The notes: generated from the letters alone by a model not told the origin. Numbered from the stretch's first letter, positions 12,649 through 33,610 are shown. The stretch: DNA of 64,000 bases from Candidatus Magasanikiibacteriota bacterium (GCA_041665405.1 JBAYIZ010000003.1:2589-66588), one strand, 5' to 3'. A program made the numbers and translations.

Positions 12649-13668
12649 ATGAAGTTTACTCGCACAAAAAAGGTGTTATTTACGAACAATAAAGGCGGAG
12701 TTGGCAAAACCACGCTGGCTTTTAATTGTGCCATGTCCTTTGCCAAACAAGGGTATAAAACTGTATTGGTTGATCTTGATCCTCAATGCAATCTTTCCCG
12801 ATTATCTTTAGGCGACAATCGATATGAAAAGACACTATTTTCATCACAGGAAAAAGATATTTATGATGTGTTGAAAGGCGTGATAGAGGGTGGGTCAGAT
12901 ATTGATTTAGGTGTGCCGTTTATTCCTGTATCCAACAGCAACAATAATCTTTTTTTAATGAAAGGTAGTGTTAATCTTTCGCTGTATGAAAATATATTAG
13001 TTACGGCCTACGGACAAGCCGCCGCTGGCCAGCAACTTGGCTATTTTCAAACTAGTGCGATTGATAGGTTCCTTCGAGAAAGAGGATTAAATGACGAGGT
13101 GGATATTTTTGTAATAGATACATCTCCTAGCTTGTCGCTACTCAATCAAATTATTTTCCTTGGTTCAGATTATTTTGTTGTTCCTATGATGCCCGATGCT
13201 TTTAGCGTGCAAGGTATTGAAAATCTTGGTAGCATATTTGAAAAATGGAAACAAAATTGGAAAGTAACCGGCAAAGCTCTTTCTGGTAATACAGAAAGTA
13301 AATTTGTGCTTTCAGGTGATGGTCTTTTTATTGGGTATATTGTGAATTCATATAATGTATATGGCAAACAGCCAATAAAAGATCACCGCCATTGGATTGA
13401 AGAAATTCCGGCTAAAGTTAAAAAATATCTTTCAGAAAAACATGGACGAAATGGGCTGGTTGAAAAAAGTTGGAAAAATCCGCTGGCTGAAATTCAGGAT
13501 TATGGTAGAATTCCTGCAAAGTGTCAAGAAATTGGGGTAGCGATATTTGATCTTGACCCAGCGTTGATTGATGAAATTCATCTTGGAACTATAGAAAACA
13601 TTGAAAAGTCAAAAGAGGAATTTGGAATATTGACGCAAAATATTTTAAAAATATTAATTGATTATTAA
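12649..13668 (+). CDS. ParA/MinD-family P-loop ATPase (deviant Walker A)
   Basis: KGGVGKTT deviant Walker A, DLDPQCN (A' motif), hhhhDTSPS Walker B. 339 aa with a ~90-aa C-terminal extension. Located between hsdS and hsdR. Confidence 0.75.
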   Translation: MKFTRTKKVLFTNNKGGVGKTTLAFNCAMSFAKQGYKTVLVDLDPQCNLSRLSLGDNRYEKTLFSSQEKDIYDVLKGVIEGGSDIDLGVPFIPVSNSNNNLFLMKGSVNLSLYENILVTAYGQAAAGQQLGYFQTSAIDRFLRERGLNDEVDIFVIDTSPSLSLLNQIIFLGSDYFVVPMMPDAFSVQGIENLGSIFEKWKQNWKVTGKALSGNTESKFVLSGDGLFIGYIVNSYNVYGKQPIKDHRHWIEEIPAKVKKYLSEKHGRNGLVEKSWKNPLAEIQDYGRIPAKCQEIGVAIFDLDPALIDEIHLGTIENIEKSKEEFGILTQNILKILIDY

Positions 13669-13715
13669 AAATAGACCGTTAGCCCTTAAGTTTTTATGGA
13701 GTTAGCGGTTTTTTA

Positions 13716-16070
13716 ATGTATATGCTTAACGAATCAGAAACACGAGCCGAATATATTGACCCGAAACTTAAAGCGAGTGGTTGGGGTGAAGTGGAGGGAT
13801 CCAAAGTCCTGCGTGAATTTCGTATTACCGACGGTAAAATTCAAGCTGGAGGAATGCGCGGTAAACCGGAAATTGCGGATTATATTTTGGTATATAAAAA
13901 TCGCAAAATTGGGGTGATTGAAGCTAAGGCGGAAAATTTAGCGGCGTCTGAGGGTGTAGGACAAGCCAAAGCGTACGCGCAAAAATTACAGATTGATTTT
14001 ACCTATGCCACCAACGGCAAAGATATTTATGAAATTTCCATGAAAAACGGACAAGAAGGAAATGTTGTAGATTTTCCAACTCCGGATGAATTGTGGGACA
14101 AAACTTTTTCTGACCAACCAGCCACAAACGAAGAATGGAAAGAAAAATTTGATGCGGTTTCGTCTGAAGGTGAAAAAGGTAAACGATATTATCAAGAGCT
14201 GGCTATCAACAATGCACTGGATGCGGTGGCACAAGAAAAGACACGAATACTAATAACTATGGCCACGGGGACAGGTAAGACTGCGGTGGCGGCTCAAATC
14301 GCTTGGAAACTATTTCAGACCCGCTGGAATTTAAAGAGAGATGGATCTCGCAGACCACGAATATTGTTTTTGGCGGATAGAAATATTTTGGCTGACCAAG
14401 CATTTGGAAATGATTTTTCAATTTTTCCAACCGATGCTATGGTGCGTATCAATCCTTTGGATATTCGAAAAAAGGGTGGTGTGCCAATGAGTGGTAGTGT
14501 TTATTTTACAATTTTTCAAACTTTTATGAGTGGAGCGGAAGGTGCTCCTTATTTTGGAGAATATCCACCAGATTTTTTTGATTTTATTATCATTGATGAG
14601 TGTCATCGTGGCGGTGCTAATGATGAAGGTAATTGGCGTGGTATTTTGGAATATTTTTCTCCTGCAGTCCAACTTGGTTTGACTGCGACACCAAAGCGAC
14701 AAGATAATGTGGATACATATAAATATTTTGGTGAACCAGTTTATGTTTATTCACTCAAAGAGGGTGTGAATGATGGCTTTTTGACTCCATTTAAAGTTAA
14801 ACGAGTCAAAACTACTCTTGATGATTATATTTACACTTCAGATGATCAAATTGTTGAAGGTGAAGTGGAAGAAGGAAAAATATATACTGAACCGGATTTT
14901 AATAAAATAATTGAGATCAAGGCCAGAGAGGCAAAAAGAGTGAGAGTGGTATTAGATGAAATAAATCAAAATGAAAAGACAATAATATTTTGCGCGACCC
15001 AGGACCACGCGGCGGCCGTGCGTGATTTGGTAAATCAAATGAAAGATAATAAGGATCCGAATTATTGTGTGAGAGTGACTGCCAATGACGGATTTCGTGG
15101 TGAACAATTTTTGCGTGAATTTCAAGATAATGAAAAAACTATACCGACTATTTTGACCACTTCACAAAAACTTTCTACTGGCGTAGACGCGCGCAATATT
15201 CGCAATATTGTTTTGATGAGACCGGTAAATTCAATGATTGAATTTAAACAAATTATCGGTCGTGGTACTCGACTTTTTGATGGTAAAGAATATTTTACGA
15301 TTTATGATTTTGTGGATGCGTACCATCACTTTGCCGATCCTGAATGGGATGGGGAACCAGCAAGTGAAACAACAGAAGATCAACCAACGGTTAAATATGA
15401 AACCACGAACAAGGATTTTGGCGGATCTATTTTGCGAGAAAAACCGACTGAAAAATATAAAAAATTAAAAATAAAATTACGTGATGGAAAAGAACGAGAA
15501 ATACAGCATATGATTTCAACTTCTTTTTGGAGTGCTGACGGCAAACCAGTTTCTGTTCAAGAATTTATGGACAATATGTTTGGTACCATGCCAGAATTTT
15601 TTAAGAGCGAAGAAGAACTCCGGAAAATTTGGTCAAACCCAACCACACGAAAAGTATTTTTAGAAAAAATTGCTGAGGCTGGTTATGGAAAAGACGAACT
15701 GGAAACATTACAAAAATTGATTGACGCTGAACAGAGTGATTTGTTTGATGTGCTTGCCTATGTATCCTTTGCTAGCAAGCCAATTAGCAGAACGGAGAGG
15801 GTTGACACTACTAAAAAAATTATTTTAAAAGGATTGGATGAAAAACAAACAGAATTTTTGCAATTTGTTTTAAATAAATATATTGATAATGGAGTAGAAG
15901 AGCTAGACGAAGAAAAATTGCCACAATTATTGAATTTAAAATATTACGCTATTGCAAATGCTGAACAGGAACTAGGCGATGTGTTTAAGATTAGAAATTT
16001 ATTTATTGATTTTCAAAAAGGTCTCTACAGTAATAAAATAAAAAATAATATTACTATTCAAAAAAATTAA
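13716..16070 (+). CDS. hsdR: type I restriction enzyme endonuclease/helicase subunit R (EcoEI-like, short form)
   Basis: N-terminal HSDR_N-like MLNESETRAEYIDPKLKASGWG. SF2 helicase motifs MATGTGKT (I), DECHRG (II), LGLTATP (III). The C-terminal region resembles the EcoEI_R_C domain. Confidence 0.88.
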   Translation: MYMLNESETRAEYIDPKLKASGWGEVEGSKVLREFRITDGKIQAGGMRGKPEIADYILVYKNRKIGVIEAKAENLAASEGVGQAKAYAQKLQIDFTYATNGKDIYEISMKNGQEGNVVDFPTPDELWDKTFSDQPATNEEWKEKFDAVSSEGEKGKRYYQELAINNALDAVAQEKTRILITMATGTGKTAVAAQIAWKLFQTRWNLKRDGSRRPRILFLADRNILADQAFGNDFSIFPTDAMVRINPLDIRKKGGVPMSGSVYFTIFQTFMSGAEGAPYFGEYPPDFFDFIIIDECHRGGANDEGNWRGILEYFSPAVQLGLTATPKRQDNVDTYKYFGEPVYVYSLKEGVNDGFLTPFKVKRVKTTLDDYIYTSDDQIVEGEVEEGKIYTEPDFNKIIEIKAREAKRVRVVLDEINQNEKTIIFCATQDHAAAVRDLVNQMKDNKDPNYCVRVTANDGFRGEQFLREFQDNEKTIPTILTTSQKLSTGVDARNIRNIVLMRPVNSMIEFKQIIGRGTRLFDGKEYFTIYDFVDAYHHFADPEWDGEPASETTEDQPTVKYETTNKDFGGSILREKPTEKYKKLKIKLRDGKEREIQHMISTSFWSADGKPVSVQEFMDNMFGTMPEFFKSEEELRKIWSNPTTRKVFLEKIAEAGYGKDELETLQKLIDAEQSDLFDVLAYVSFASKPISRTERVDTTKKIILKGLDEKQTEFLQFVLNKYIDNGVEELDEEKLPQLLNLKYYAIANAEQELGDVFKIRNLFIDFQKGLYSNKIKNNITIQKN

Positions 16071-16074
16071 TAAT

Positions 16075-16980
16075 ATGCCATTATTTAAAAATACCGATTC
16101 GAAACTATCCATAATAAAAGAAAGGCCGATTGATTTAGAGAGGGATATTCAACATCTCACTGAAATTAATTTAGAAAATGTTTTTAACCTAGAATTTGTT
16201 AGTTCTGAATTTTCTTTACACAATTTCAGACTTGACACACTAGCTTTTGACAAGGAGACAGGTTCTTTTGTAATAATAGAATTTAAAAGAGATAGAAGCT
16301 TCAGTGTTATTGATCAAGGGTATGCCTATTTATCTTTAATGTTAAACAACAAGTCAGATTTTATTTTGGAATACAATGAAAAAACAAAAAAGAATTTAAG
16401 ACGTGATGATGTTGACTGGTCACAGTCCAGAGTAATGTTTGTAGCAAATTCATTTACTTCATATCAAATGAATGCAATAAATTTTAAAGATCTACCCATT
16501 GAATTGTGGGAAGTTAAAGTTTATGAAAACAATGTAATATTATTTAATCAACTCTTATCACAAGACTCTACTGAATCAATAAAAACTATCACAAAAAACA
16601 AAGCTATCGATTCAGTGAGTAACGAAGTAAAAGTCTATACATTAGAAGACCATTTGAATGTGAACGATAAAATAAAAGAATTATTTTATGCGCTAAGAGA
16701 AAAAATACTAGCGCTTAGTGATACAATCGAAGAAAGACCTAAAAAAATGTACGTTGCATACAGAGTTAGAAATACATTTGCGTATGTTCATATACAACAA
16801 TCGCAAATCAAGATCCACTTAACTATTGATATGAAAAAACTGGTTGATCCAAAGGGTTTTGTTAGGGATGTAAATAATATTGGCCATTTTGGTGGTGGTG
16901 ATTTAGAGGTGATTTTAGACAAAATGGAAAATCTAAATTATGTTTTTGATTTAATTGAACAATCTTATAAAGCATTATAA
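16075..16980 (+). CDS. predicted PD-(D/E)xK (RecB-like) nuclease-domain protein
   Basis: Starts 4 nt after the hsdR stop. The N-terminus carries ...LDTLAFDKETGSFVIIEFKRD... (D..D..hIEFK) and DQGYAYL (QxxxY). The C-terminal ~130 aa are an unassigned domain. Confidence 0.4.
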   Translation: MPLFKNTDSKLSIIKERPIDLERDIQHLTEINLENVFNLEFVSSEFSLHNFRLDTLAFDKETGSFVIIEFKRDRSFSVIDQGYAYLSLMLNNKSDFILEYNEKTKKNLRRDDVDWSQSRVMFVANSFTSYQMNAINFKDLPIELWEVKVYENNVILFNQLLSQDSTESIKTITKNKAIDSVSNEVKVYTLEDHLNVNDKIKELFYALREKILALSDTIEERPKKMYVAYRVRNTFAYVHIQQSQIKIHLTIDMKKLVDPKGFVRDVNNIGHFGGGDLEVILDKMENLNYVFDLIEQSYKAL

Positions 16981-17034
16981 ATCAAAAAACATACAAATCA
17001 TTACAATTAGTGAACATCATAATAAAACATACTT

Positions 17035-17391
17035 ATGATAAAACTTACCCCAGAAGAGAAAAAAATTATAATAGACAAAGGGACAGAACCACCTTTTATC
17101 GGAGAATACGTCAATAACAAAGAAACCGGTGTTTATATCTGCCGACAGTGCGAAGCCCCACTATATAATTCCAAAGACAAATTTGAGTCTAATTGTGGTT
17201 GGCCGTCATTTGATGATGAGATACCTGGATCAGTAAATAAAACTTTGGACGCTGACGGTGTGCGAACGGAAATAACTTGTGCCAATTGTGGAGGTCATCT
17301 GGGGCACTTGTTCATTGGTGAAAAATTAACAGAAAAAAATAAAAGGTATTGTGTAAATTCGATATCAATGAAATTCATACCTGGAAAATGA
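17035..17391 (+). CDS. msrB: peptide-methionine (R)-S-oxide reductase
   Basis: Two CxxC zinc knuckles ([18 protein letters not shown]), CGWPSF and the catalytic RYCVNS motif. Confidence 0.9.
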
Positions 17392-17423
17392 AGTGCAGAT
17401 TGAGGTGAAAGTAAAATAAATAT

Positions 17424-17765
17424 ATGCGCGTTTGGGATATACATCCAAAACACCTATGCCGAAAACATTTGCTTGCAGAACATCGTGAACTTCATGGGCT
17501 TTGGAATATTTTAACTATACACAAAGGAAAGGGTGGGTATTCACGGCATCCGGAAACACTTCGCTGGGTGGGAAAACAAAAAGCTCTCTATGATAGACAC
17601 GAGGCGCTGGTAAAAGAGTTTTTGGTTCGCGGATATAAACACCACACACCGCTTGATAAACGTTTAGCCAAAGGTTCAGGCAGCCAGAGTGTATTTATAA
17701 ACACTATGCGTGAGCAAAAAGTTATTTTAAAACAAAAACCGTGCGAATGTTTGCTGCATGGATGA
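17424..17765 (+). CDS. pyrimidine dimer DNA glycosylase (T4 endonuclease V/DenV-like, Pyr_excise family)
   Basis: N-terminal MRVWDIHPKHLCRKHLLAEHRELHG aligns with T4 endoV [28 protein letters not shown] (catalytic N-terminus plus the E-R-E-L core). Size is 113 aa. Confidence 0.7.
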   Translation: MRVWDIHPKHLCRKHLLAEHRELHGLWNILTIHKGKGGYSRHPETLRWVGKQKALYDRHEALVKEFLVRGYKHHTPLDKRLAKGSGSQSVFINTMREQKVILKQKPCECLLHG

Positions 17766-17823
17766 TGACATTTGTACCTGTATTTAATATGTTCACTTTA
17801 TCCACACACAATGTTTGATTTTT

Positions 17824-17846
17824 ATACACTAATAGTGTATACTAAA
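17824..17846 (+). promoter_or_regulatory. palindromic operator ATACACTA-a-TAGTGTAT overlapping a GTATACTAA motif, immediately upstream of the HTH-Panacea gene
   Basis: Read directly: 8-bp perfect arms ending 6 nt before the ATG at 17852. Confidence 0.55.
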
Positions 17847-17851
17847 CACAT

Positions 17852-18526
17852 ATGAATAAAAACTACCAAACCGCCATAAAACAACTACGATTAGAAAAAA
17901 ATATATCGCAATCTGACATTGCGCAAAAGATGGGTATTTCGCGCACCTCATATATTTCTTTTGAACAAGGTAAGCGCGACATCAGTCTATCCGAAGCGGG
18001 TGTTTTGGCCGATATATTTGGCATCTCCTTGGAAGATCTCAAAAATGGCGTAACACCGAATAATGAAAAATACAAACAAATGATTTTGGCTTTTTTGCGT
18101 TTGGATACCAAGATCACAAAGACCAAACTTGCTAAATTATTGTATTTTGCCGATTTTGGGTGGTTTTATTCTCACCTTGAAAGTATGAGCGGCATGTCAT
18201 ACCGTAAAATGGCGTATGGTCCAGTTTCAGATGCTTATTTTAGGATAGTTGACGATTTGTTTGACAACGGTCAAATTGATATTGAGCAAACCAAAGATGG
18301 GGCAATGTTAGTTTCTCAGACGCGCAGTGGCGCAAAAATTGATTTATCTGCTCTCAATACTGAAGAAAAAAAGTTAATATCCACTATTGAAAAAAAATGG
18401 AAAGGCAAAAAAACTTCTGAGATAGTTGATTTTACCCACAAGCAATTTCCATATTTATATGCTCAAGACAACGAAATTGTGTCATATGGTTTGTTTACCC
18501 AAGAAAATCCTGACGAAATTTTCTAA
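17852..18526 (+). CDS. XRE-family HTH fused to a Panacea (DUF4065/SocA-like) domain protein; putative antitoxin/regulator
   Basis: N-terminal HTH (QSDIAQKMGISRTSYISFEQGKRDISLSEAGVLADIFGISLEDL). The C-terminal KTKLAKLLYFADFGWFYSHLESMSGMSYRKMAYGPV matches the DUF4065 core (KLqKLLYfad...GPV). A palindromic operator lies immediately upstream. Confidence 0.7.
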   Translation: MNKNYQTAIKQLRLEKNISQSDIAQKMGISRTSYISFEQGKRDISLSEAGVLADIFGISLEDLKNGVTPNNEKYKQMILAFLRLDTKITKTKLAKLLYFADFGWFYSHLESMSGMSYRKMAYGPVSDAYFRIVDDLFDNGQIDIEQTKDGAMLVSQTRSGAKIDLSALNTEEKKLISTIEKKWKGKKTSEIVDFTHKQFPYLYAQDNEIVSYGLFTQENPDEIF

Positions 18527-18584
18527 TTATGATATACAAAAATGATAAGATATATTTTATATAATAATTTTAATTTAATTATAT

Positions 18585-19538
18585 ATGGAGGGGAAAAACA
18601 ATCAAATTATCATATACAATACTAAGGACGGCAAGACCAAGATTGAAGTTAAGCTAAATGACGAAACTGTATGGCTCACCCAGGCGCAAATGGCTGATTT
18701 GTTTCAGAAGAGCCAATCTACAATAAATGAACATATCCAAAATGTTTATGATGAGGGTGAATTGGAAAAAGAGCTAACCTTGCGTAAATTCGGAAATTCC
18801 GAAAATAGCATAGCTAAGCCAACCAACATTTATAATCTGGATGTGATCATCTCCGTTGGCTATCGTGTTAATTCCCTTCGAGGCACCCAATTCCGCATTT
18901 GGGCAACACAAAAATTGAAAGAATACATTATAAAAGGTTTTGTATTGGACGATGAGCGATTAGAAAGCGGACAGGTAGCCAAACCATACTTTCAGGAATT
19001 AGAAGAACGCATTCGCAAGATTCGCACTTCTGAAGCAAATTTCTATCAAAAGGTAAAAGATGTTTTTGCTTTAAGCGCGGATTACAATCCGAAGGCAGAT
19101 TATGCTCAGAAATTTTTCGCAGTAGTACAAAATAAATTTCACTTTGCTATTACCGGATTAACCGCAGCCGAAATTGTTAGCAGTCGCATAGACAGTGCCA
19201 AAGAAAATTTAGGGCTGACAAATTGGAAGGGTGAAATTATTACTCGTGATCAAGCGGAAGTCGCAAAAAATTATTTACAAGAACTAGAATTAAAAAGATT
19301 AAATTTACTGGTGGAACAATTTCTTTCTTTTGCTGAATTACAAAGTGTGGAACAGCGCGTCATGTATATGAATGATTGGATTATGAAACTGGATGGATTT
19401 TTGGTTTTGAATGATAAAGAAATTTTGGAAAATTCTGGCAGTGTGTCGCGCCATGACATGGAACAAAAGGTGCGCGAGGAATTAAAGAGATATAATCAGA
19501 AGGTTTTGGAAAATAAAAAACCCAATCAATTAGATTAG
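18585..19538 (+). CDS. RhuM-family protein (Virulence_RhuM, PF13310-like)
   Basis: N-terminus IIIYNTKDGKTKIEVKLNDETVWLTQAQMADLFQKSQSTINEHIQNVYDEGEL is the highly conserved RhuM-family opening. It lies 58 bp downstream of the Panacea gene on the same strand. Confidence 0.7.
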   Translation: MEGKNNQIIIYNTKDGKTKIEVKLNDETVWLTQAQMADLFQKSQSTINEHIQNVYDEGELEKELTLRKFGNSENSIAKPTNIYNLDVIISVGYRVNSLRGTQFRIWATQKLKEYIIKGFVLDDERLESGQVAKPYFQELEERIRKIRTSEANFYQKVKDVFALSADYNPKADYAQKFFAVVQNKFHFAITGLTAAEIVSSRIDSAKENLGLTNWKGEIITRDQAEVAKNYLQELELKRLNLLVEQFLSFAELQSVEQRVMYMNDWIMKLDGFLVLNDKEILENSGSVSRHDMEQKVREELKRYNQKVLENKKPNQLD

Positions 19539-19821
19539 GCATTTTATTGAAGTAGTGTCTTAGAAAATGGTTATCTGCGGCTTAAGTTCCAGGTACCCTG
19601 GAGGAACACCACGGCACTCTCTAAGTTATTATTACTAACTTCACTTATAATATAGACAATAAAGTGATCATTGTCAATATTTATCCACAGACTATGTCAA
19701 CTAACCGGAATTTCCGGATAACTGAATTAACTAAAATTTTACCTTAAAATATAGCTTGTTATATTCCATAATTATAAGAATATTTTGGCTAATATATAAC
19801 TAATAAAGCCACTCTAACAAT

Positions 19822-19860
19822 TAGTATACTCATGAGGTATACTAATTACAAGTATACTAA
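19822..19860 (+). promoter_or_regulatory. three direct copies of (A/G)GTATACTAATTA, each containing the GTATAC palindrome, immediately upstream of the DUF2779 gene
   Basis: ttAGTATACTcatgagGTATACTAATTAcaaGTATACTAATTatg read directly. TAGTATACTA is a perfect 10-bp palindrome. Confidence 0.55.
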
Positions 19861-19862
19861 TT

Positions 19863-21347
19863 ATGCACATCACCAAAACCGACTACCTCGAATACACCTT
19901 CTGCAAAAAGAACCTCTGGCTCAAAAAACACAAACCAGAGCTTTTTGATGGTGTCGAATTATCGGAATTTGAAAAGAAAATAATCGAAGAGGGGAACATG
20001 GCCGATGAATCAGCCCGCCATTTGTTTCCTGGTGGTGTGTTGGTAGATAGTTTTGGAGAGGATGCCGTGCATGACACCGCCCAATACCTGGAGAAAAAAA
20101 CAGCGGTGATATTTCAAGCGACCTTTGCGCAAGATGTTTTTTATATTCGCGCGGATATTTTGGTTTATGATCAATCCCAAGATGGCTATGAGCTGTATGA
20201 GGTGAAGGCCAGCAATGATGTCAAAAGAAAAGAGCCACATCATTATATCAACGACCTAGCTTTTCAAAAAAGTGTGATTGAAAAAAGTGGTTTGAAAATT
20301 ATTAAAACTGGCGTGATTCATTTGAACAGTGAATACCAAAGAGCGGGGGAAATTGATTATGAAAAATTATTTGTGATAGTGGATCTCAGTGATGAAGTGT
20401 TGGCCTCGCAAGAAAAAGTGCAAGCCCAGATGGAGGATATTAAAAAATATTTAAACATGCCGGAAGAAAAAGGGTGTGAATGTTTGTATCGCGGAAGAAA
20501 TGCTCAATGTACTACCTTTGCTTATTCCAACCCAGAGGTGCCAGAATATTCGGTGCATGATATCAATCGGATTGGGGCGAGTAAAAAAATACTTAATGAT
20601 TGGATAGATAGAGGGATATATGCGATTGAAGATATAGACAATCCACAGGTGCTCACTGGGGCCAAGAAGGCGCAATATGATGCGTGCTCGCTAGGCAAAC
20701 CGATGATTGATGAGGTGGCGATAAAAGAGGCGCTGGACAAATTGGTTTGGCCTTTGTATTTTTTTGATTATGAAGGATTTGTAAGTGCGATTCCGATGTT
20801 TGATGGTTTTGGGGCGTATGAACAAATTCCTTTTCAATATTCTCTGCATATTATGCAAGCGGATGGGAGTATAGAACATAGGGAATTTTTGATTACCGAT
20901 CCCAAAGGAGATCTCACCCGACCGCTGGTGGAACGGATGAAACAGGATATTGATCCGCGCGGGACGGTGATCGCGTGGTATAGCACTTATGAAAAACAAC
21001 GCAATTTGAAATTGGCACAGTTGCATCCGGACTATGCGAAATTTTTGGAGGAAATAAATGAGGGGATGTTTGATCTGATGACTATTTTTTCGGAAAATCT
21101 TTATGTGGATTCGGCTTTCAAGGGGAGCGCGAGTATCAAAAGGGTGTTGCCGGTGATTGTGCCGGAGCTAAGTTATAAAAATTTAAATATTTCCAAAGGG
21201 GATCAGGCGAGTGAGCGGTGGGAGCGGATGATTGGCAGTGATACGCCGGCGGAGGAGAAGAGACAGATTGAGAAGGATTTGTTGGAGTATTGTAAGATGG
21301 ATACTTGGGCGATGGTGAGGATATGGGAGAGGTTGAGGAAAATATAA
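19863..21347 (+). CDS. DUF2779-family protein with Cas4/RecB-like PD-(D/E)xK nuclease N-terminal domain
   Basis: N-terminal ITKTDYLEYTFCKKNLWLKKHKPELF matches the DUF2779 opening (lSKS.f..g.qC.k.lWl). ...ADILVYDQSQDGYELYEVK... carries a D...ELYEVK (ExK) motif. Three GTATACT repeats lie upstream. Confidence 0.55.
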   Translation: MHITKTDYLEYTFCKKNLWLKKHKPELFDGVELSEFEKKIIEEGNMADESARHLFPGGVLVDSFGEDAVHDTAQYLEKKTAVIFQATFAQDVFYIRADILVYDQSQDGYELYEVKASNDVKRKEPHHYINDLAFQKSVIEKSGLKIIKTGVIHLNSEYQRAGEIDYEKLFVIVDLSDEVLASQEKVQAQMEDIKKYLNMPEEKGCECLYRGRNAQCTTFAYSNPEVPEYSVHDINRIGASKKILNDWIDRGIYAIEDIDNPQVLTGAKKAQYDACSLGKPMIDEVAIKEALDKLVWPLYFFDYEGFVSAIPMFDGFGAYEQIPFQYSLHIMQADGSIEHREFLITDPKGDLTRPLVERMKQDIDPRGTVIAWYSTYEKQRNLKLAQLHPDYAKFLEEINEGMFDLMTIFSENLYVDSAFKGSASIKRVLPVIVPELSYKNLNISKGDQASERWERMIGSDTPAEEKRQIEKDLLEYCKMDTWAMVRIWERLRKI

Positions 21348-21413
21348 AATAATAATTTTAAACCCATCTAATTCGATGGGTTTAAAAAGGGGCCGAATTC
21401 GACCCCTTTAAAA

Positions 21414-21450
21414 CCGACCATTGAGTCGGTTTTTTATTTTTGGTATAATA
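21414..21450 (+). promoter_or_regulatory. repeated terminator-hairpin + extended -10 promoter module, copy 1 (CCGACcattgaGTCGG-T6-ATTTTTGGTATAATA)
   Basis: Read directly. Two further hairpins (AAACCCATCtaattcGATGGGTTT; AGGGGCCgaattcGACCCCTTT) precede it after the DUF2779 gene. Confidence 0.6.
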
Positions 21451-21471
21451 TCCATTATTAAATATTTAATT

Positions 21472-22074
21472 ATGAACAAGGGGGAAATAAATATATTTTT
21501 AAAATACTTTGAAGATAAAAAACAAAGGACTATTGTAATAGTTGATTATGGGAATGTTGAAAAATGGAAACATTCACTAAGTTGGGATGTGGGTATTAGA
21601 GAATTAGCAAATTTAATAAAAAATTTTTCCGGCAAAGAATTTTTACGAAGATTTTATTATGGTGCGGATTATGGTAAAGAAGAAAAATCTAAAATATTAA
21701 CCTACTGGTCTAAAAAAGTTTTAGAAACCGCACACTTCAACAGATTCGATGTCCAACATAAAAGAGTAAAATATATACACGACCAAAACAACAAACATGG
21801 GTTTGCTAAAAAGTGTGATTTGGATGTCGAAATGGCGGTTGATTTAATTAAAGAAAGAGATAATTACGATACTATAATTATATTTTCTGGCGATGGTGAT
21901 TTAATGTACGCTATACGATATTTGGTAGAAAAATATAAAAAAAGATGTTATGTTTTTGGTGCACGCGACCATATTGGAAGAGAAGTATATGATGCAAAAA
22001 CTGATTGTTGCGTAACAGAAGTATTATATGTCGAAGATTTTGAATATCGCCTAAGCTCAACTAGATTTAAATAA
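21472..22074 (+). CDS. NYN-domain (LabA-like) predicted ribonuclease
   Basis: IVIVDYGNVEKW (VDgeN-like N-terminal acidic motif) and IIIFSGDGDLMYAIRYL...YVFGA (SGDGDf motif) are typical of PF01936. Start is taken at the ATG for MNKGEINIF; the upstream TTG is part of a repeated promoter module. Confidence 0.6.
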   Translation: MNKGEINIFLKYFEDKKQRTIVIVDYGNVEKWKHSLSWDVGIRELANLIKNFSGKEFLRRFYYGADYGKEEKSKILTYWSKKVLETAHFNRFDVQHKRVKYIHDQNNKHGFAKKCDLDVEMAVDLIKERDNYDTIIIFSGDGDLMYAIRYLVEKYKKRCYVFGARDHIGREVYDAKTDCCVTEVLYVEDFEYRLSSTRFK

Positions 22075-22240
22075 TAAGATACCAAAAATCAGAAACCCGC
22101 CTTTAGGGCGGGGATTCGATCAAAATACGGTAAGCCTATGGATTGCTCCACAACTTACATAGATATAATACATAATTTTGACTAATTCGTCAAGTTATCC
22201 ACAGGGAATAATATATTAGAAAATATTCATATATTAAAAT

Positions 22241-22278
22241 CGGCTATTGAGCCGGTTTTTTATTTTTGGTATAATACT
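22241..22278 (+). promoter_or_regulatory. repeated hairpin + extended -10 module, copy 2 (CGGCTattgAGCCGG-T6-ATTTTTGGTATAATA), upstream of tspO
   Basis: Read directly. The T-run and the TGGTATAAT are identical to copy 1. Confidence 0.6.
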
Positions 22279-22299
22279 TACATATTTAAAAAAATAATT

Positions 22300-22776
22300 A
22301 TGAAAATAAATAACCCATCCAAACTTATCGTCGCCATTATCGTTTCCGAACTTGCCGGCATCATCGGTTCGGTGTTCACAACTCCATCCATTGCCGGCTG
22401 GTACTCAGAAATTGTAAAACCAACTCTAAATCCGCCCGCATGGGTCTTTGGACCAGTTTGGACAACATTGTTTGCTCTCATGGGTATTTCGGCATTCTTG
22501 ATTTGGAAGAAAGGGCTGAATCGCAAGGATGTTAAAATAGCTCTCGGTATATTTTTTGGTCAACTTATTTTAAACACGCTTTGGTCAATTATTTTTTTCG
22601 GTCTACACAGTCCAGGTGGTGCGTTGATTGAGATTATTTTCCTCTGGCTTGCCATTCTTGCCACGATTATCTTTTTTGCAAAAATCTCCAAACCGGCTGC
22701 TTGGCTTCTTTTGCCGTATATTCTTTGGGTAAGTTTTGCGATGTATTTAAATTACGCTATTTGGGTATTGAATTAA
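22300..22776 (+). CDS. tspO: TspO/MBR family tryptophan-rich sensory protein
   Basis: Five TM helices with the conserved W-rich pattern ...GWYSEIVKPTLNPPAWVFGPVWTTLFALMGISAFLIW.... Size is 158 aa. Confidence 0.85.
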   Translation: MKINNPSKLIVAIIVSELAGIIGSVFTTPSIAGWYSEIVKPTLNPPAWVFGPVWTTLFALMGISAFLIWKKGLNRKDVKIALGIFFGQLILNTLWSIIFFGLHSPGGALIEIIFLWLAILATIIFFAKISKPAAWLLLPYILWVSFAMYLNYAIWVLN

Positions 22777-22807
22777 AATCGGAGCTTAATACGAATTATT
22801 TAAATTT

Positions 22808-23413
22808 ATGAAAACAAGAATCTGTATATTTGGAGCAAGTACAACCTGGGGTATGCGAGATAACGAAGGTGGTGGATGGGTTGGGCGACTACGAAAATAT
22901 TTTGAAACTAATAATTATGATACTCGGGTTTATAATTTGGGTATTCCTGGGGATACTACTACTGACCTACTAAAAAGATTTGAAGTTGAATGCGAAGCTA
23001 GAAAACCTGATGTGATAATTTTTGGAATAGGAGCAAATGATGCATGCTATATTAATACTGAAAAAAACATGATGACCTCATTGAGACAATTTAACAAAAA
23101 TTTTTCAAAGCTAATTAAAAAAGCAAAAAAGATTACAAATAAAATCATATTGGTAGGGCTAACAAAAGTGGAAGAAATCAAATCTATGCCCATTCTCTTA
23201 AACAAGCAAAAATTTTGTTCAAATGCAAATATAATTAAATATGATTTGGCTATAAATGAAGCAGGCAAAATACATAGCGTGCCATTCATATCTTTGATTG
23301 ATTTATTAACTCCAAAGGATTTGAGCGATGATGGTCGTCATCCAAATTCAAAAGGGCATGAAAAAATGTTTTTGAAAATAAAGGATTATTTACTGGTTAA
23401 TAAAATTGTATAA
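22808..23413 (+). CDS. SGNH/GDSL-family hydrolase (lipase/acylesterase-like)
   Basis: Block I ICIFGASTTWG (catalytic Ser), block III GIGANDA, block V DDGRHPN (Asp/His). Confidence 0.75.
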   Translation: MKTRICIFGASTTWGMRDNEGGGWVGRLRKYFETNNYDTRVYNLGIPGDTTTDLLKRFEVECEARKPDVIIFGIGANDACYINTEKNMMTSLRQFNKNFSKLIKKAKKITNKIILVGLTKVEEIKSMPILLNKQKFCSNANIIKYDLAINEAGKIHSVPFISLIDLLTPKDLSDDGRHPNSKGHEKMFLKIKDYLLVNKIV

Positions 23414-23477
23414 AAAAAGAGTTTGAAAACAAACAAAAAACACGCCAAAATTATTAGCGTGTTTTATTTATTCTTCA

Positions 23478-23538
23478 AGATCGCTCTCGTTTTTATCACA
23501 AATATATTATGATAAAAACGAGTTGGAGCGATCTTGAG
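23478..23538. repeat. long inverted repeat (~25-bp arms) forming a strong hairpin at the low-GC/high-GC junction
   Basis: TCAAGATCGCTCtCGTTTTTATCA...TGATAAAAACGAGttgGAGCGATCTTGA read directly. It lies directly 3' of the minus-strand cupin gene. Confidence 0.7.
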
Positions 23539-23570
23539 ACCGAACCTTCCCGTCCTCGATGAGGGTCGGC

Positions 23571-23936
23571 CTACAGATGGGTGGCCGGGAAGTTCTTCTG
23601 GTCCTCGAAGGTGACGGGCATGTAGCCCACCAAGATCATACCAGCCGAACAGGCGAGAACATGCTCCTCGCCAGGCTCGAACATGAACATGGTCGGAGCC
23701 ATGATGACATGGTCCCACACGCCTCCGTTCTCGGTCCACGTGCGCACCCTGCAGCGCCCCTTGACCAGGAAGAACCCCTCGACATGGGCATGCGAGTGGT
23801 TGCCCAACCTCACGCCTTTGGACTTGGTGATGAGTACCTTGCTCTCCACCGGCTTGGGGAAATAAGGTGGCGGACGAAAAGCCGTCAAATCCCGCCGGGA
23901 ATCACTGTGGCTGTCCGCCACGAGAAAAATCTGCAT
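23571..23936 (-). CDS. cupin-fold WxcM/FdtA-like (sugar 3,4-ketoisomerase-like) domain protein encoded on a ~60% GC segment
   Basis: 121 aa. ...LGNHSHAHVEGFFLVKGRCRV... parallels FdtA RGFHAHKKLEQVLVCLNGSCRV. The downstream ...PGEEHVLACSAGMILVGYMPVTFED parallels ...WHEM..FS.D.V.MVLAS.YYDE. GC content of 23540-23940 is far above the surrounding ~30%. The plus-frame ORF 23559..24692 is an antisense artefact of GC-rich DNA. Confidence 0.5.
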   Translation of the reverse strand: MQIFLVADSHSDSRRDLTAFRPPPYFPKPVESKVLITKSKGVRLGNHSHAHVEGFFLVKGRCRVRTWTENGGVWDHVIMAPTMFMFEPGEEHVLACSAGMILVGYMPVTFEDQKNFPATHL

Positions 23937-24028
23937 GATTTAGTTTGTCCTCCCATCTTTGGTCGCATGATTGCGACTATTCTTTTTATCAAAAAACTGG
24001 GTTTCTGTCAAGAATACGAAATAATCAA

Positions 24029-24066
24029 CCGACCATTGAGTCGGTTTTTTATTTTTGGTATAATAT
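24029..24066 (+). promoter_or_regulatory. repeated hairpin + extended -10 module, copy 3, upstream of the DUF3800 gene
   Basis: CCGACCATTGAGTCGGTTTTTTATTTTTGGTATAATA, identical to copy 1 over 36 nt. Confidence 0.6.
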
Positions 24067-24071
24067 ACCTT

Positions 24072-24692
24072 ATGAATATATATTTAGACGAATCATACAA
24101 TTTACAAAAATCTAAAGGTAAAATGTTTATTAGTATCAATGGTTTTTCTGTTCTAAATGCCGAACGGTTGAGAAAACGCTGGAAACATATTCGACAACCA
24201 TATACAAAACACAAGCGTCGTATTCATGCAACAGATCCTTTCTTTGAAGGTTTGCGAAGTAAAAGTATTCCACTACTAAAGGCAAATGATATAATGATAA
24301 TATCTGTATTTCAAATTGTACAGGAAATTCCTTACGATTATTTTGATAATAATAAAATGAATTTTGAAGTTGTTTATGCTGAATTACTAAAACAACTATT
24401 AAAAGAACTTTCGCTTAACGAATACAAACAAACTAAAATTATAATCGACTCTCGCAAACACAAAGGGGGGATTGCTGGAGCAACCAATTTTCAACAAGAA
24501 ATTAATAATTTTTTGAAAAATAAATTTCCAGGTACTGTATGTTCATTTTTACCTACACCTTCATATTTAGATGTACTTGTTGAATTGGCTGATTTCGTTT
24601 CTAATACTTTTTATAAAAACTACCAAAAAGGAGATGACACTATATTTAAACAGCTCGGATATCGACTTATACAAATAAAAAACCCGCTATAA
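24072..24692 (+). CDS. DUF3800-family protein
   Basis: Starts MNIYLDESYNL..., matching the DUF3800 N-terminal IYIDESG-type motif. The ATG sits 7 nt after a repeated TGGTATAATA promoter module. 206 aa. Confidence 0.5.
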   Translation: MNIYLDESYNLQKSKGKMFISINGFSVLNAERLRKRWKHIRQPYTKHKRRIHATDPFFEGLRSKSIPLLKANDIMIISVFQIVQEIPYDYFDNNKMNFEVVYAELLKQLLKELSLNEYKQTKIIIDSRKHKGGIAGATNFQQEINNFLKNKFPGTVCSFLPTPSYLDVLVELADFVSNTFYKNYQKGDDTIFKQLGYRLIQIKNPL

Positions 24693-24855
24693 AAGCGGAT
24701 TTAGTAAGAGCCTTTTGGGAGTGTCTCTGCTTCATCGGGATGTTCTTGATGAGAACGCCCTCCACAAAGCTTTACCCTAAGGACTTATCTTCTGAAGATA
24801 TTATCACACAAAAAGGTTGTTTTGTCAATGTGTGTGGATAACTAACATGCAATAA

Positions 24856-24890
24856 AATCGGCTATTGAGCCGGTTTTTTTTATCTGCTAT
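24856..24890 (+). promoter_or_regulatory. repeated hairpin + -10 module, copy 4 (CGGCTATTGAGCCGG-T8-ATCTGCTATACT), upstream of the Cys-rich peptide
   Basis: Hairpin identical to copy 2; the -10 is diverged to TATACT. Confidence 0.5.
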
Positions 24891-24898
24891 ACTATGGA

Positions 24899-25039
24899 TA
24901 TATGGCTAAATGTGTAAATTGCGGGAAACCGCTAGAACACGAGGACGACAGCTGTTTGTGCAATACCAGCGTTTGTCCAACTTGCTGTGACTGCCATAAA
25001 GAATGTGGTTGTAATTGCAAGGAACGCACCGAAAAGTAA
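24899..25039 (+). CDS. small cysteine-rich peptide (46 aa, 11 Cys; zinc-ribbon/metallothionein-like)
   Basis: Read directly as MAKCVNCGKPLEHEDDSCLCNNTSVCPTCCDCHKECGCNCKERTEK. Below the ORF-track size cut-off. It lies immediately downstream of the fourth copy of the hairpin/-10 module. Confidence 0.45.
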   Translation, partial: YMAKCVNCGKPLEHEDDSCLCNTSVCPTCCDCHKECGCNCKERTEK

Positions 25040-25089
25040 GTTAAAATAAAAATTGCCCAGAAGAGTCGTAATCCACTCTAAATTTTGTT

Positions 25090-27999
25090 ATGGCCAAACT
25101 AAATGAAAATCAATTGAAAGCGGTCGAATACAATGACGGTCCGCTTTTGATTATTGCAGGAGCTGGTACTGGTAAAACCACCGTGATTACCAAAAAAATT
25201 TCTCATCTCATCACTCACAAACTCGCCAAAACGCAAGAAATTTTGGCCGTGACCTTTACCGAAAAAGCTACCAAAGAAATGGAAGACCGTGTGACTGATT
25301 TATTATCTACCGGCGGATTTGATGTTTTTATTACTACCTTTCACGGACTGGCTCAACGCATTTTGGAAAGTCATGCACTAGATATTGGATTGCCAAATAA
25401 TTTTAAACTTCTCAACGAAACTGAAGTTTGGCTTTTGATTCGAAAAAATTTGGATAAATTTGAATTGGATTATTACCGACCACTGGGCAACCCAACCAAA
25501 TTTATTCATGCCATGATAAAACATTTTCAAAAATGCAAAGATGAATTGATTGCACCGGAAAATTATTTGGAATATGCGGAGAGCTTGGATACAGATTTGG
25601 CCGATGAAGAAAAAGCTTTGGAAATAAAAAGAATAAAAGAATTAGCCAAAGCATACAAACTCTACAACCAATTATTGTTAGACAACGACACCATGGATTT
25701 TGCCGACCTGATGTTTTATGCGGTGAAATTATTGCGCGAACGGCCAAACATTTTGAAATTTTATCATCAAAAATTTAAATATATTTTGGTGGACGAATTT
25801 CAAGATACCAATTGGTCTCAATATGAATTGATAAAATTACTGACCAAAAACGAAGAGGTGAAATTGACAGTAGTGGGGGATGATGACCAAAGTATTTACA
25901 AATTCCGCGGCGCCTCTATTTCCAATATTTTGCAATTCAAAACTGATTTTCCCAAGTGCCAAGAAGTGGTGTTGGCCGAAAATTATCGTTCGGGACAAAA
26001 GATTTTGGATTTGGCGTACAATTTTATTCAACTCAACAATCCGGATCGTCTAGAAGACAGATTAAAAATAAATAAAAAATTAATTTGCAAAAAAGATTTC
26101 ACGGGTGAATTTGATTTGATTTACGCGCAAGACGAAAGTGAAGAAGCACATTTGTTGGTAGAGAAAATTAAAACGCTCAAGCAAACCCACGAATGCAACT
26201 GGTCCGATTTTGCAATTTTGTGCCGTGCCAAAAGTTATGCCCAACAATTTATTCCATATTTAGAACAAGCGGGGATACCATATATATTTCAAGCGACCAG
26301 CGGATTGTTTCGCCAAAAAGCCATTCTAGATAGTATGGCCTATTTGCGTTTGTGCGATAACTACCATGAATCTAGCGCGGTATATAGACTATTGAGTACA
26401 CCCGTCTTTGGGCTAGACCACAATGATATTTCCAAAATATTATTGTTTGCTCGTGAACATACGCTGTCCTATTTTGAAGTGTTGAACAATATTGAAAAAG
26501 AACATTTGAAAATATCCGCAGATGGGACAGAGAAAGCAAAAAAATTATTATCGGTAATAAACAAAGGGGCAGAACTGGCTCATACCAATCCAGTTGGCAA
26601 AGTATTGTACAATTTTTGGGAGGCTTCGGGATATTTGAAATTATTGAGCGACAATCCAGAAAAATATCAAGCGAACATTTTTAATTTGCAATCTTTATTT
26701 TCCAAAATAGAAGATTTTCAAAACAGCAATATTGATACCACGGTTCACGCCTGGCTAAATTATTTTGATTTTATTTTGGAATCCGGTGACGATGGCGAAG
26801 ATATGCAGATAGATAGTAGCGAAGATGCGGTGCAAATTTTGAGTATTCACAAATCCAAAGGTTTAGAATTTGATTTCGTGTTTGTGCCAAATCTAGTGGA
26901 CCAAAGATTTCCAACTATTGGGCGACATACCGACATTGATCTACCCGATGCTCTCGTACGCGAAGGTGCACTGCCTAGTGGTGATGTCCATCTCCAGGAA
27001 GAAAGACGACTGATGTATGTCGCTATCACTCGTGCCAAAAAAGGAATATTTTTTACTGCCGCCAAAGATTACGGTGGCGCGCGCGAGAAAAAATTATCCA
27101 AATTTATTTTTGAAATGGAAGAGACGAACAAGACACCATTAAGTCGCGAGTCAGTGTCCACGCACAAAAATATTGCTTTCAAAACTGCCCAACAAAATGA
27201 TGAGCGTCCTGCTCTGAATTTGCCATTGCCTACAGAATTTTCTTTCTCCCAACTTCAAGCGTATGATAAATGTCCTTGGCAATATCGCTATCAGTTTATT
27301 TTGAAGATTCCGACTTTTGGAAAAGGTGTATTTGTGTTTGGCAAAACTATGCACAGCACTTTGCAAAAATTTTATCAGCAAGTGATGGAATTAAATCCAG
27401 ACCATAAAAATAATTTAGATACAAAAATAAAAGTGCCGACCAAAGATGAGCTCTACGATTTTTATCAATCTTCATGGCAAGACACTTGGTATTATTCTCC
27501 CGAACAAAAAAAGGAATACCGTGAGATGGGTATGAAAATTTTGGAGACATTTTATGCGCAAGGAGAAAAAGAAGGATGGACTGTGCCAGTCACTTTGGAA
27601 TCTAGTTTCAAATTTCGACTTGGCGATCATGTGATAAAAGGCACGGTAGATCGTATTGATAGAATGCCAGACGGCAAAATCGCCATTATCGATTACAAGA
27701 CCGGCAAACCAAAAGATAAATTAAAAAAAGAAGACAAACGCCAATTATTGATCTACCAAATTGCTAGTGAAAGTGCTTTAGAATTGCGAGATTTGGGAGA
27801 AGTGGGGGAGTTGAGATATTATTTTTTAAACGATAACACCGCAATCGGATTCAAAGGTACAGACAAAGAAATCGAAAAGGAAAAAGAATATACTATCAAT
27901 TCCATCGCTGAAATAAAAAAACAAAATTTCACTCCCAATCCGAGTGAGCACAATTGTCAGCATTGTGATTTTAAAGATATTTGTGATTTTCGTGTATGA
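25090..27999 (+). CDS. UvrD/PcrA-family SF1 helicase fused to a C-terminal Cas4/RecB-like PD-(D/E)xK nuclease with Fe-S cysteines (AddA-like)
   Basis: Helicase motifs LLIIAGAGTGKT (I), VDEFQDTN (II), ...VGDDDQSIYKFRGA (III), ILSIHKSKGLEFD (V), MYVAITRAK (VI). The C-terminus carries ...CPWQYRYQFILKIP..., GTVDRIDRM...IIDYKTGK (D..ExK) and a terminal CQHCDFKDICDF cysteine cluster. Confidence 0.85.
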   Translation: MAKLNENQLKAVEYNDGPLLIIAGAGTGKTTVITKKISHLITHKLAKTQEILAVTFTEKATKEMEDRVTDLLSTGGFDVFITTFHGLAQRILESHALDIGLPNNFKLLNETEVWLLIRKNLDKFELDYYRPLGNPTKFIHAMIKHFQKCKDELIAPENYLEYAESLDTDLADEEKALEIKRIKELAKAYKLYNQLLLDNDTMDFADLMFYAVKLLRERPNILKFYHQKFKYILVDEFQDTNWSQYELIKLLTKNEEVKLTVVGDDDQSIYKFRGASISNILQFKTDFPKCQEVVLAENYRSGQKILDLAYNFIQLNNPDRLEDRLKINKKLICKKDFTGEFDLIYAQDESEEAHLLVEKIKTLKQTHECNWSDFAILCRAKSYAQQFIPYLEQAGIPYIFQATSGLFRQKAILDSMAYLRLCDNYHESSAVYRLLSTPVFGLDHNDISKILLFAREHTLSYFEVLNNIEKEHLKISADGTEKAKKLLSVINKGAELAHTNPVGKVLYNFWEASGYLKLLSDNPEKYQANIFNLQSLFSKIEDFQNSNIDTTVHAWLNYFDFILESGDDGEDMQIDSSEDAVQILSIHKSKGLEFDFVFVPNLVDQRFPTIGRHTDIDLPDALVREGALPSGDVHLQEERRLMYVAITRAKKGIFFTAAKDYGGAREKKLSKFIFEMEETNKTPLSRESVSTHKNIAFKTAQQNDERPALNLPLPTEFSFSQLQAYDKCPWQYRYQFILKIPTFGKGVFVFGKTMHSTLQKFYQQVMELNPDHKNNLDTKIKVPTKDELYDFYQSSWQDTWYYSPEQKKEYREMGMKILETFYAQGEKEGWTVPVTLESSFKFRLGDHVIKGTVDRIDRMPDGKIAIIDYKTGKPKDKLKKEDKRQLLIYQIASESALELRDLGEVGELRYYFLNDNTAIGFKGTDKEIEKEKEYTINSIAEIKKQNFTPNPSEHNCQHCDFKDICDFRV

Positions 28000-28289
28000 T
28001 GAAATCAATGGGAGAAATTTTATTATCCAAAGGTAGAAAATCGCCATTCATGCAAGGCGTACTTTCTGCTGCCGCCGTGGACATGGCCAATATTTTTATC
28101 GAAGATTATTGGGGAGAAGAAGGCAAAAAACTAGCCAAAGCGATGTACGTGAAGAACGGAAATCTGGTGATAGCCTGTCTAAGCTCTATCATGGCTCAAG
28201 AAATTCGCATGCGAGAAGCAGATCTCATCAGTAAGGTAAATTCCAAGTGTGGCAGTTCGATGGTTCGAAACGTCCGTTATTTGTCCTAA
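27996..28289 (+). CDS. small DUF721/DciA-like protein (tentative)
   Basis: 97 aa; the pattern ...VKNGNLVIACLSSIMAQEIRMREADLISKVN... resembles DUF721. Weak assignment. Confidence 0.3.
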   Translation: MMKSMGEILLSKGRKSPFMQGVLSAAAVDMANIFIEDYWGEEGKKLAKAMYVKNGNLVIACLSSIMAQEIRMREADLISKVNSKCGSSMVRNVRYLS

Positions 28290-33601: not shown

Positions 33602-33610
33602 TACTACAAC

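Follow-up and report, generated by a model that had tools for sequence, protein, structure and literature searches.

Introduction

Intrinsic terminators abutting the sigma-70 promoter of the next operon are the closest described counterparts of the element analyzed in this study, a unit of a hairpin, a run of six to eight T and a TG-extended -10 hexamer, which occurs four times in a 64,000-nt stretch from a Candidatus Magasanikiibacteriota bacterium (GCA_041665405.1, JBAYIZ010000003.1:2589-66588). This whole stretch, in the following called the window, is part of a 132-kb contig of Candidatus Magasanikbacteria (Patescibacteria/Candidate Phyla Radiation, CPR), and almost nothing is known experimentally on transcription signals in this group. 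As in the abutting arrangement, a G+C stem-loop with U-tract stands, except at copy 3, at the end of a transcription unit and TTGnnn-17-TGnTATAAT follows downstream; here, however, both signals interpenetrate, with the -35 lying in the hairpin and the U-tract forming the spacer, and four near-identical copies are present. A literature search on overlapping terminator/promoter cases yielded nothing usable.

Correia, enterobacterial repetitive intergenic consensus (ERIC) and repetitive extragenic palindromic (REP) elements are short palindromic intergenic repeats able to terminate or start transcription. They occur in tens to hundreds of copies genome-wide and have inverted repeats at their ends or form inverted pairs, duplicate their target, or come with a RAYT transposase. 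Readings of the unit as REP/REPIN, miniature inverted-repeat transposable element or transposon were rejected, since it is present as four direct copies, is absent from the other ~70 kb, and no transposase domain was found in the island ORFs tested. The attC sites of integrons are 57-141 nt long, carry R''/L''-L'/R' boxes, and need the integrase IntI and an attI site. The unit resembles them as a structured palindrome between same-strand cassettes of ~0.8-1.8 kb, in which the sequence varies and the pairing is kept. This assignment was also dismissed, because the hairpin spans 20-24 nt, no integrase was found among the tested open reading frames (ORFs) of the surrounding genomic island, and the unit carries its own promoter.

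Putative mobile promoters are similar upstream sequences of unrelated genes without a transposase, explained by promoter duplication or capture (Matus-Garcia, Nijveen & van Passel 2012; PMC3575422), and Correia elements, ERIC and REP/REPIN are listed there as small intergenic repeats. By their definition, at least 80% identity extends over at least 50 nt within -150 to -50 from the start codon (PMC3575422). The unit falls outside this definition, as its identity covers 40-45 nt at about -60 to -8 and all four copies lie within 3.5 kb; over 50 nt, the identity of the other copies to copy 1 is 94%, 74% and 68%. It agrees with mobile promoters in that the downstream genes are not paralogous: NYN, TspO and DUF3800 each belong to a different Pfam family, with NYN and DUF3800 being dissimilar, and the Cys-rich peptide has no Pfam match.

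Both the elements and the phenomenon belong to known kinds, and the unit is built from ordinary parts. We consider it rather probable that the four copies are paralogues of one fused terminator and full promoter, which is native to the boundary between the atp and helicase operons and was copied locally within a variable island.

Results and Discussion

Copies and anatomy of the unit

In a repeat search, the unit was the top repeat family of the window, with starts at 21412, 22238, 24027 and 24856 and spacings of 826, 1789 and 829 nt. A degenerate hairpin/T-run 21-mer (CGRCYATTGAGYCGGTTTTTT, up to 3 mismatches) matched exactly four sites (21415, 22241, 24030 and 24859) and none in 100 shuffles, with a chance expectation of 0. 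The four copies within 3.5 kb claimed by the original prediction were thereby recovered, all on the plus strand of the region 21200-25200. Their features are:

21410-21449, plus strand: copy 1 (type A), predicted to serve NYN (ATG 21472)
21410-21433, plus strand: hairpin of copy 1, AAAACCGAC-CATTGA-GTCGGTTTT, with the T-run at 21430-21435
21421-21426 and 21441-21449, plus strand: predicted promoter of copy 1, -35 TTGAGT and TG-extended -10 TGGTATAAT
22236-22275, plus strand: copy 2 (type B), predicted to serve TspO (ATG 22300)
22236-22259, plus strand: hairpin of copy 2, AAAATCGGCT-ATTG-AGCCGGTTTT
22247-22252 and 22270-22275, plus strand: predicted promoter of copy 2, -35 TTGAGC and -10 TATAAT
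24027-24064, plus strand: copy 3 (type A), hairpin 24027-24046, predicted to serve DUF3800 (ATG 24072)
24036-24041 and 24059-24064, plus strand: predicted promoter of copy 3, -35 TTGAGT and -10 TATAAT
24854-24893, plus strand: copy 4 (type B), hairpin 24854-24877 with T8 tract, predicted to serve the Cys-rich gene (ATG 24902)
24865-24870 and 24885-24893, plus strand: predicted promoter of copy 4, -35 TTGAGC and -10 TGCTATACT

Copies 1 and 3 are identical across 40 nt, i.e., slightly further than the 36 nt counted before, and copies 2 and 4 are identical in the 26-nt hairpin/T-run half. Accordingly named stem types are AACCGAC/GTCGGTT (type A, copies 1 and 3) and AATCGGC(T)/(A)GCCGGTT (type B, copies 2 and 4). 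The U-tract directly 3' of the stem is T6 in copies 1-3 and T8 in copy 4, and the extended -10 is TGGTATAAT in three of the four copies and TGCTATACT in copy 4. From the end of the -10 to the ATG there are 22 nt (NYN), 24 nt (TspO), 7 nt (DUF3800) and 8 nt (Cys-rich gene), which bears out the earlier statement that the units shortly precede these start codons. Also, the TTG-initiated ORFs (LSRFFIFGII...) had rightly been regarded as translations of the unit, and NYN homologues of 200-206 amino acids (aa) fit the ATG at 21472. Copy 3 and the leftward promoter of a cupin-like gene (TTGACA 24010-24005) are arranged back to back. Copy number and anatomy are direct observations.

The original prediction described a restart of transcription without a -35 element. 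A promoter scan contradicted this point: in all four copies, a -35-like TTGAGT or TTGAGC precedes the TG-extended -10 at a spacing of exactly 17 nt, and the related contig L110 (related contigs are given by such labels) has such a hexamer at this spacing as well. Of TTGAGY, TTGA lies in the hairpin loop and GY begins the 3' arm. Because the -35 sits inside the hairpin, 17 nt before the -10, the T-tract of the terminator is also the promoter spacer. Each copy scored as terminator-like and as promoter-like (hexamer matches 10/12 or 9/12, TG, 17-nt spacer). The stems comprise 7-10 pairs, four of them G-C, and fold with about -8.5 to -11.5 kcal/mol, which is in the range of the atpC, greA, GDSL and small-RNA terminators of the same genome. 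A position at the end of a co-directional transcription unit was found for copies 1, 2 and 4, for the L110 unit (end of the atp operon) and for an upstream copy in L089. Judged by its sequence, the unit combines a terminator-like hairpin with a complete, interleaved sigma-70-type promoter.

In the mechanism we propose, the hairpin (7-10 bp) with T6-8 would stop rightward transcription, and the same bases would build the next promoter, with the -35 TTGAGY in the loop and 3' arm, the T-tract as most of the 17-nt spacer, and then TGGTATAAT or TGCTATACT; thereby the unit may act as an insulator. Initiation would take place ~7 nt past the -10. Since the ATG follows 7-8 nt after the -10 at copies 3 and 4, leaderless mRNAs are predicted there, while copies 1 and 2 would give short leaders without Shine-Dalgarno sequence. 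The dual constraint on RNA hairpin and -35/spacer suggests that very small genomes can pack a stop and a start signal into 40 bases, and makes the unit a candidate for a ready-made terminator-promoter part for CPR organisms.

Specificity of the unit

A structural scan of the 64 kb for a hairpin, T-run and TGnTAnnnT returned the four copies, an operon boundary at 33609, and one spurious coding match. With a covariance model built from eight variants, the known copies scored 66-75 bits and the next best match in the window 17.5 bits; no copy beyond the four was found in the window plus 9.6 kb of extra source contig (73.6 kb). With four copies only in this range, the motif is not ubiquitous at gene starts, an objection already foreseen in the original prediction.

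The promoter half alone is generic. The pattern TTGA-N5-T6-WTWTYTG-S-TATAMT found dozens of unrelated strong promoters in AT-rich metagenome contigs, and the only homologues among these matches were L052, L066, L068, L100 and L089. A hairpin abuts the T-run in 6 of 50 promoters of the -35/T-rich spacer/extended -10 pattern, two of these six being true homologues. The 22-mer GGTTTTTTATTTTTGGTATAAT had four matches in 185,579 species genomes, none of them homologous. In the Saccharibacteria contig L037, the identical 22-mer follows another hairpin, located where a pilin-like gene ends; it was rejected as a homologue, the combination of pilin-gene terminator and promoter being convergence.

The hairpin-only pattern gave 36 matches in viral contigs; all belonged to high-GC proteobacterial phages, were plain terminators lacking a downstream promoter, and were discarded. 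Since it matches such unrelated phage terminators, the hairpin alone is not diagnostic. A strict pattern with free 3' arm had no matches in viral contigs, and a BLAST search of copy 1 against phage and plasmid collections returned nothing relevant. Rfam matches over the copies (tsr26, RNAI, STnc50) were far below gathering scores, driven by hairpin and T-run, and were likewise discarded.

Conservation of the stem

For the comparison of stem and sequence constraint, 8 distinct sequences were used: the four window copies, two from L089, and one each from L052 and L110. The loop/-35 bases ATTGAG are invariant in all of them, and the seven core stem pairs are paired in 8/8, so that maintenance of the stem can be read off directly. 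One stem pair changes from A-U to G-C in 3/8 variants, and two pairs change from C-G to U-G. In the reverse complement, the hairpins weaken with these U-G changes, from -11.2 to -7.1 and from -7.2 to -4.1 kcal/mol (B and A' variants). As the U-G changes are tolerated in the plus-strand RNA only, the constraint would act on the plus-strand RNA. Taken from the aligned variants, this pattern favors an RNA hairpin of rightward transcripts, i.e., a terminator, over a protein operator.

Genomic context and native copy

The atp operon of the window ends with atpC at 5653, and a conserved operon encoding the Cys-rich peptide, a UvrD/PD-(D/E)XK helicase, DciA, MreB, MreC and PBP2 begins at 24902. The region between them and the genes next to the units are:

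5654-24853 (~19 kb): variable cargo and defense island between atpC and copy 4
21472-22074, plus strand: NYN gene (LabA/DUF88-like), predicted to be served by copy 1
22300-23413, plus strand: TspO (22300-22776) and GDSL hydrolase (22808-23413), predicted to be served by copy 2
24072-24692, plus strand: DUF3800 gene, predicted to be served by copy 3
24902-28289, plus strand: Cys-rich 45-aa gene, UvrD/PD-(D/E)XK helicase-nuclease and DciA, the start of the core operon, predicted to be served by copy 4

The island contains RadC, a type I restriction-modification system, Shedu-like, ParA-like, MsrB, pyrimidine-dimer glycosylase, HTH-SocA and RhuM genes, a DUF3800-V RNA, and the DUF2779, NYN, TspO, GDSL, cupin-like and DUF3800 genes. 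It is absent from L110, which stems from the same sample (ERZ27249449) and has an 83% identical helicase; L052, L089, L111 and L112 carry other cargo at the equivalent place.

In L110, the unit AAACCGGCCATTGAGCCGGTTTTTTTAATCTGGTATAAT directly follows the atpC stop codon and precedes the Cys-peptide gene, and in this interval it is the sole terminator-like and the sole plus-strand promoter-like site. The unit upstream of the Cys-peptide gene is also present in L052, L066, L068, L100 and L089. Because these relatives carry it there, copy 4 is regarded as the orthologous core-genome copy, itself a direct observation as to its site, and copies 1-3 as extra ones. This comparison identifies the boundary of the atp and helicase operons as the putative native site of the unit. 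In the island-bearing contigs L111 and L112, the -10 is kept 8 nt from the ATG and the hairpin is absent at the right boundary. Among relatives with 65-83% helicase identity, the distance of 7-8 nt from -10 to ATG is kept for the Cys-peptide and DUF3800 genes, even without the hairpin.

Origin of the copies

NYN homologues with 73-79% identity are present in four other CPR contigs, where their upstream regions are unrelated and devoid of the unit; a conserved small-RNA gene downstream is present there as well. Because these homologues in other CPR genomes lack the unit, it was not imported together with the cargo. The DUF3800 orthologues in L052 and L100 directly follow DUF2779, and the L052 DUF3800 promoter aligns base for base with copy 3 from ATTGA onwards, with the hairpin arms absent (TTGAAC-17-TGATATAAT).

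The mosaic structure of copy 2 is seen directly: its 5' hairpin half equals copy 4, its 3' promoter half equals copies 1 and 3, and the partner switch lies inside the T-run. Copies 1 and 3 flank a 2615-bp block (NYN, TspO, GDSL, cupin) that separates DUF2779 from DUF3800, and in L052 both genes are adjacent. Independently, two copies of the unit in L089 flank a block of Fic, a 228-aa ORF, MsrA and glycosylase; the upstream one comprises hairpin, T-run and ATTTCTG only and lacks a -10, the Fic gene being equipped with a separate promoter.

According to the reading as locally copied paralogues, the native copy would mark the boundary of the atp operon and the Cys-peptide-helicase-dciA-mreBCD operon, a hotspot hit by the 19-kb variable island. 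The signal would then have been copied to three further cassette boundaries, probably by gene conversion or crossing-over between island variants, i.e., by local recombination or promoter reuse. Such local copying in a hypervariable island would be a clean, small example of promoter reuse wiring new genes into expression.

The nearly equal intervals of 826 and 829 nt were also considered as duplicated homologous cassettes. This explanation was rejected, as NYN and DUF3800 are dissimilar (BLASTP; hhalign probability 0.7%) and the intervals differ in composition; the equal spacing is best taken as coincidence.

Alternative explanations

Several points weigh against the reading as locally copied terminator-promoter units. 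The search for extra copies covered 73.6 kb of the 132-kb source contig. At copy 3, the upstream neighbor is transcribed leftward and GDSL has its own terminator; because no rightward transcription arrives there to be stopped, the hairpin would have come along with the copy and would not be needed. The -35 TTGAGY matches TTGACA at 4/6 positions and may contribute little beside a TG-extended -10. Termination and initiation at the unit are themselves predicted activities. Covariation is weak, with one truly compensatory pair among close relatives and 14/500 shuffles reaching the score. Finally, direct repeats on either side of cargo blocks, seen in two genomes, would be compatible with a site-specific mechanism as well.

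This last point leads to the best surviving alternative, an att-like recombination site, which we regard as unlikely. Cargo would insert at the hairpin/T-run, with the copy duplicated at either junction. A recombinase supplied in trans, or a Campbell-type homologous crossover via circular intermediates, would bring this about, and any activity as terminator or promoter would be a side effect or secondary. In its favor are the direct repeats on both sides of cargo blocks in two independent genomes (copies 1/3 and 2/4 of the window; L089), identity breakpoints within the unit (in L089 right after ATTTCTG, in copy 2 inside the T-run), and the location at a proven insertion hotspot. However, 19 island ORFs were tested and no integrase, transposase, tyrosine recombinase or other recombinase domain was detected; the DUF3800 cassette has its edge ~25 nt away from copy 4 and not at it; L111 and L112 carry islands yet no hairpin at the right boundary; and integron attC sites are far longer than this hairpin. 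Moreover, homologous recombination between similar promoters accounts for the mosaics equally well.

In a bolder version, which appears quite unlikely to us, the unit is a docking sequence for capture, shuffling and immediate expression of cargo at the atp/helicase hotspot, i.e., a recombinase-poor cassette system of CPR bacteria guided by homology or structure. Every insertion could then regenerate an upstream terminator and a downstream promoter. In a related reading, a terminator release site inside the next promoter would couple neighboring operons by recycling of RNA polymerase (PMC6978380, PMC10372574). If the recombination reading were true, it would hint at a route by which CPR genomes assemble defense islands without dedicated integrases.

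Extended -10 promoters can function without a -35. This possibility and the copies at the 5' ends of four unrelated genes in a variable island favor the original prediction of a portable, -35-less promoter and insulator, which would travel with each cargo gene and might record its one-by-one acquisition. Its description of a specific repeat with terminator-then-promoter anatomy in a variable island is retained here, as far as anatomy can be judged from sequence. The notion of a tag imported with each cargo gene had to be given up, and the scenario as a whole is very improbable: TTGAGY is found at canonical -35 spacing, the NYN homologues in four CPR contigs are without the unit, the L052 DUF3800 orthologue has a promoter without hairpin, and one copy belongs to a core operon boundary and not to cargo.

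An operator, at which a dimeric regulator would bind the palindrome over the -35 and co-regulate the four genes, is given even less credence. A palindrome of 14-16 bp centered on the -35, a classical operator position, is indeed common to the four promoters, but the half-sites vary (CCGAC, TCGGC, CCGGC, CTGAC) while pairing stays, and strand-asymmetric G-U pairs disfavor this explanation because they are meaningless for a double-stranded DNA operator. Also, the L089 hairpin/T-run without any -10 appears as a gene-end hairpin, and in L110 the unit is the only predicted terminator of the atp operon.

Convergence of strong promoters in an AT-rich genome, or chance, can practically be set aside: the commonness of -35/T-rich spacer/TGnTATAAT in unrelated AT-rich metagenome contigs and the L037 22-mer behind a different hairpin uphold it for the T-rich spacer and -10 half only, and for the hairpin half it is refuted by the 40-nt (copies 1/3) and 26-nt (copies 2/4) identities, which include non-consensus hairpin arms, and by a gap of more than 40 bits in the covariance model between true copies and all else.

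A second putative terminator-promoter fusion

A further conserved, putative fusion of terminator and promoter was observed at the boundary of greA and an aminoacyl-tRNA-synthetase gene (33609-33651; L110 18528; L111 18504). Its hairpin ACCCCAG…CTGGGGT is followed by TTTT-TTGACT-17-TGnTAnAAT, the -35 emerging from the end of the U-tract, and its stem and loop lengths vary between relatives.

Neighboring candidate small RNAs and a DnaA-box-like motif

In every genome examined, a conserved small-RNA gene lies downstream of the NYN gene, on the opposite strand and convergent with it (window 22085-22203, minus strand; L113 1000-1135, L114 3612-3735, L115 2110-2233, L116 1276-1402). Its TGTGGATAA box comes first, followed by TTGACx as -35, TGnTATnnT as -10 after a spacer of 17-18 nt, and an RNA of ~68 nt. 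This RNA folds into a P1 stem (GUAGG/CCUAC) and a P2 stem (UGUGGA-GNRA-UCCAUA), in which a change from U-A to C-G is compensatory; it also contains CGUAUUUUGAUCGAA, which is single-stranded and invariant, and ends with a terminator that NYN uses as well. A comparison with Rfam 15 assigned it to no family, and it is a candidate new NYN-associated RNA, widespread in CPR.

The DUF3800 gene is likewise followed by a convergent RNA gene of ~120 nt (window 24675-24841, minus strand; L052 4010-4185; L100 994-1169), which has its own TTGACA-17-TG-extended -10 promoter and terminator. Its body is ~97% conserved, the promoter spacer is not, and a hairpin reads GUUCU/AGAAC in the window and GCUCC/GGAGC in L052; the Rfam models DUF3800-I to DUF3800-XI gave no match. 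The DUF3800 ORF of L100 is truncated to 101 aa. A separate Rfam match to DUF3800-V RNA was obtained at 19548-19643 on the minus strand (70.2 bits, gathering score 37.4). Its promoter (19677-19649) scores 11/12, its terminator is at 19540-19520, and the RNA is convergent with RhuM, at a distance of 4.4 kb from the DUF3800 gene. For DUF3800-associated RNAs, no function is known (PMC5737381).

A perfect DnaA-box-like 9-mer, TTATCCACA, is located at 17798, 19681, 22195, 24833 and 41756 (5 observed, 0.8 expected), a count reached in 0/100 shuffles. Four of the five sites belong to the island and directly precede the -35 of a promoter (HTH-SocA, DUF3800-V RNA, NYN-associated RNA and DUF3800-adjacent RNA), and two of these four promoters have TTATCCACACACA in common. 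The NYN-RNA loci of other CPR genomes all keep the TTATCCACA box, at which DnaA or another regulator may bind.

A conserved element of ~90 nt (…CCAACCCCTGGCTAYAATC-hairpin-GAAGGGGATCYACTTTGTTGCTTA…), which was not found in the window and had no Rfam match, is present beside GC-rich ORFs in the islands of L052 (10513-10620), L111 (9190-9290) and L112 (9620-9700). Its hairpin is swapped compensatorily (cgtgcatgcacg vs cccgacttagtcggg).

Further features of the island and its surroundings

The segment 23466-23940 has 54% GC in a genome of ~36% GC and looks like a recent foreign acquisition. It encodes the 121-aa cupin-like ORF on the minus strand, for which a faint Ectoine_synth match was the only hit, and has a nested inverted repeat of ~75 nt at its 3' end (23470-23542).

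The Cys-rich peptide (24902-25039; also in L052, L089, L110, L111 and L112) has 45 aa with 12 cysteines (MAKCVNCGKPLEHEDDSCLCNTSVCPTCCDCHKECGCNCKERTEK) and is encoded, as a conserved feature, directly upstream of the helicase gene. In island-bearing genomes, the atpC terminator is a hairpin CAATGG…CCATTG with T6 (5664-5690; L112 6625-6655). The island-free L110 has a CCGGC-CATTGA-GCCGG unit at this place, and both contain GCCATTG.

At ~41700-42900, the cumulative GC skew peaks (~42 kb) and the gene orientation flips from plus to minus, with the TTATCCACA box at 41756; this may be a replication terminus or an origin-related switch. Within the atp operon, an unusual gap of 660 nt (3173-3832) separates the ATP synthase gamma and beta genes, in which no ORF of at least 90 aa was called; at the equivalent place, L110 has an ORF of 109 aa.

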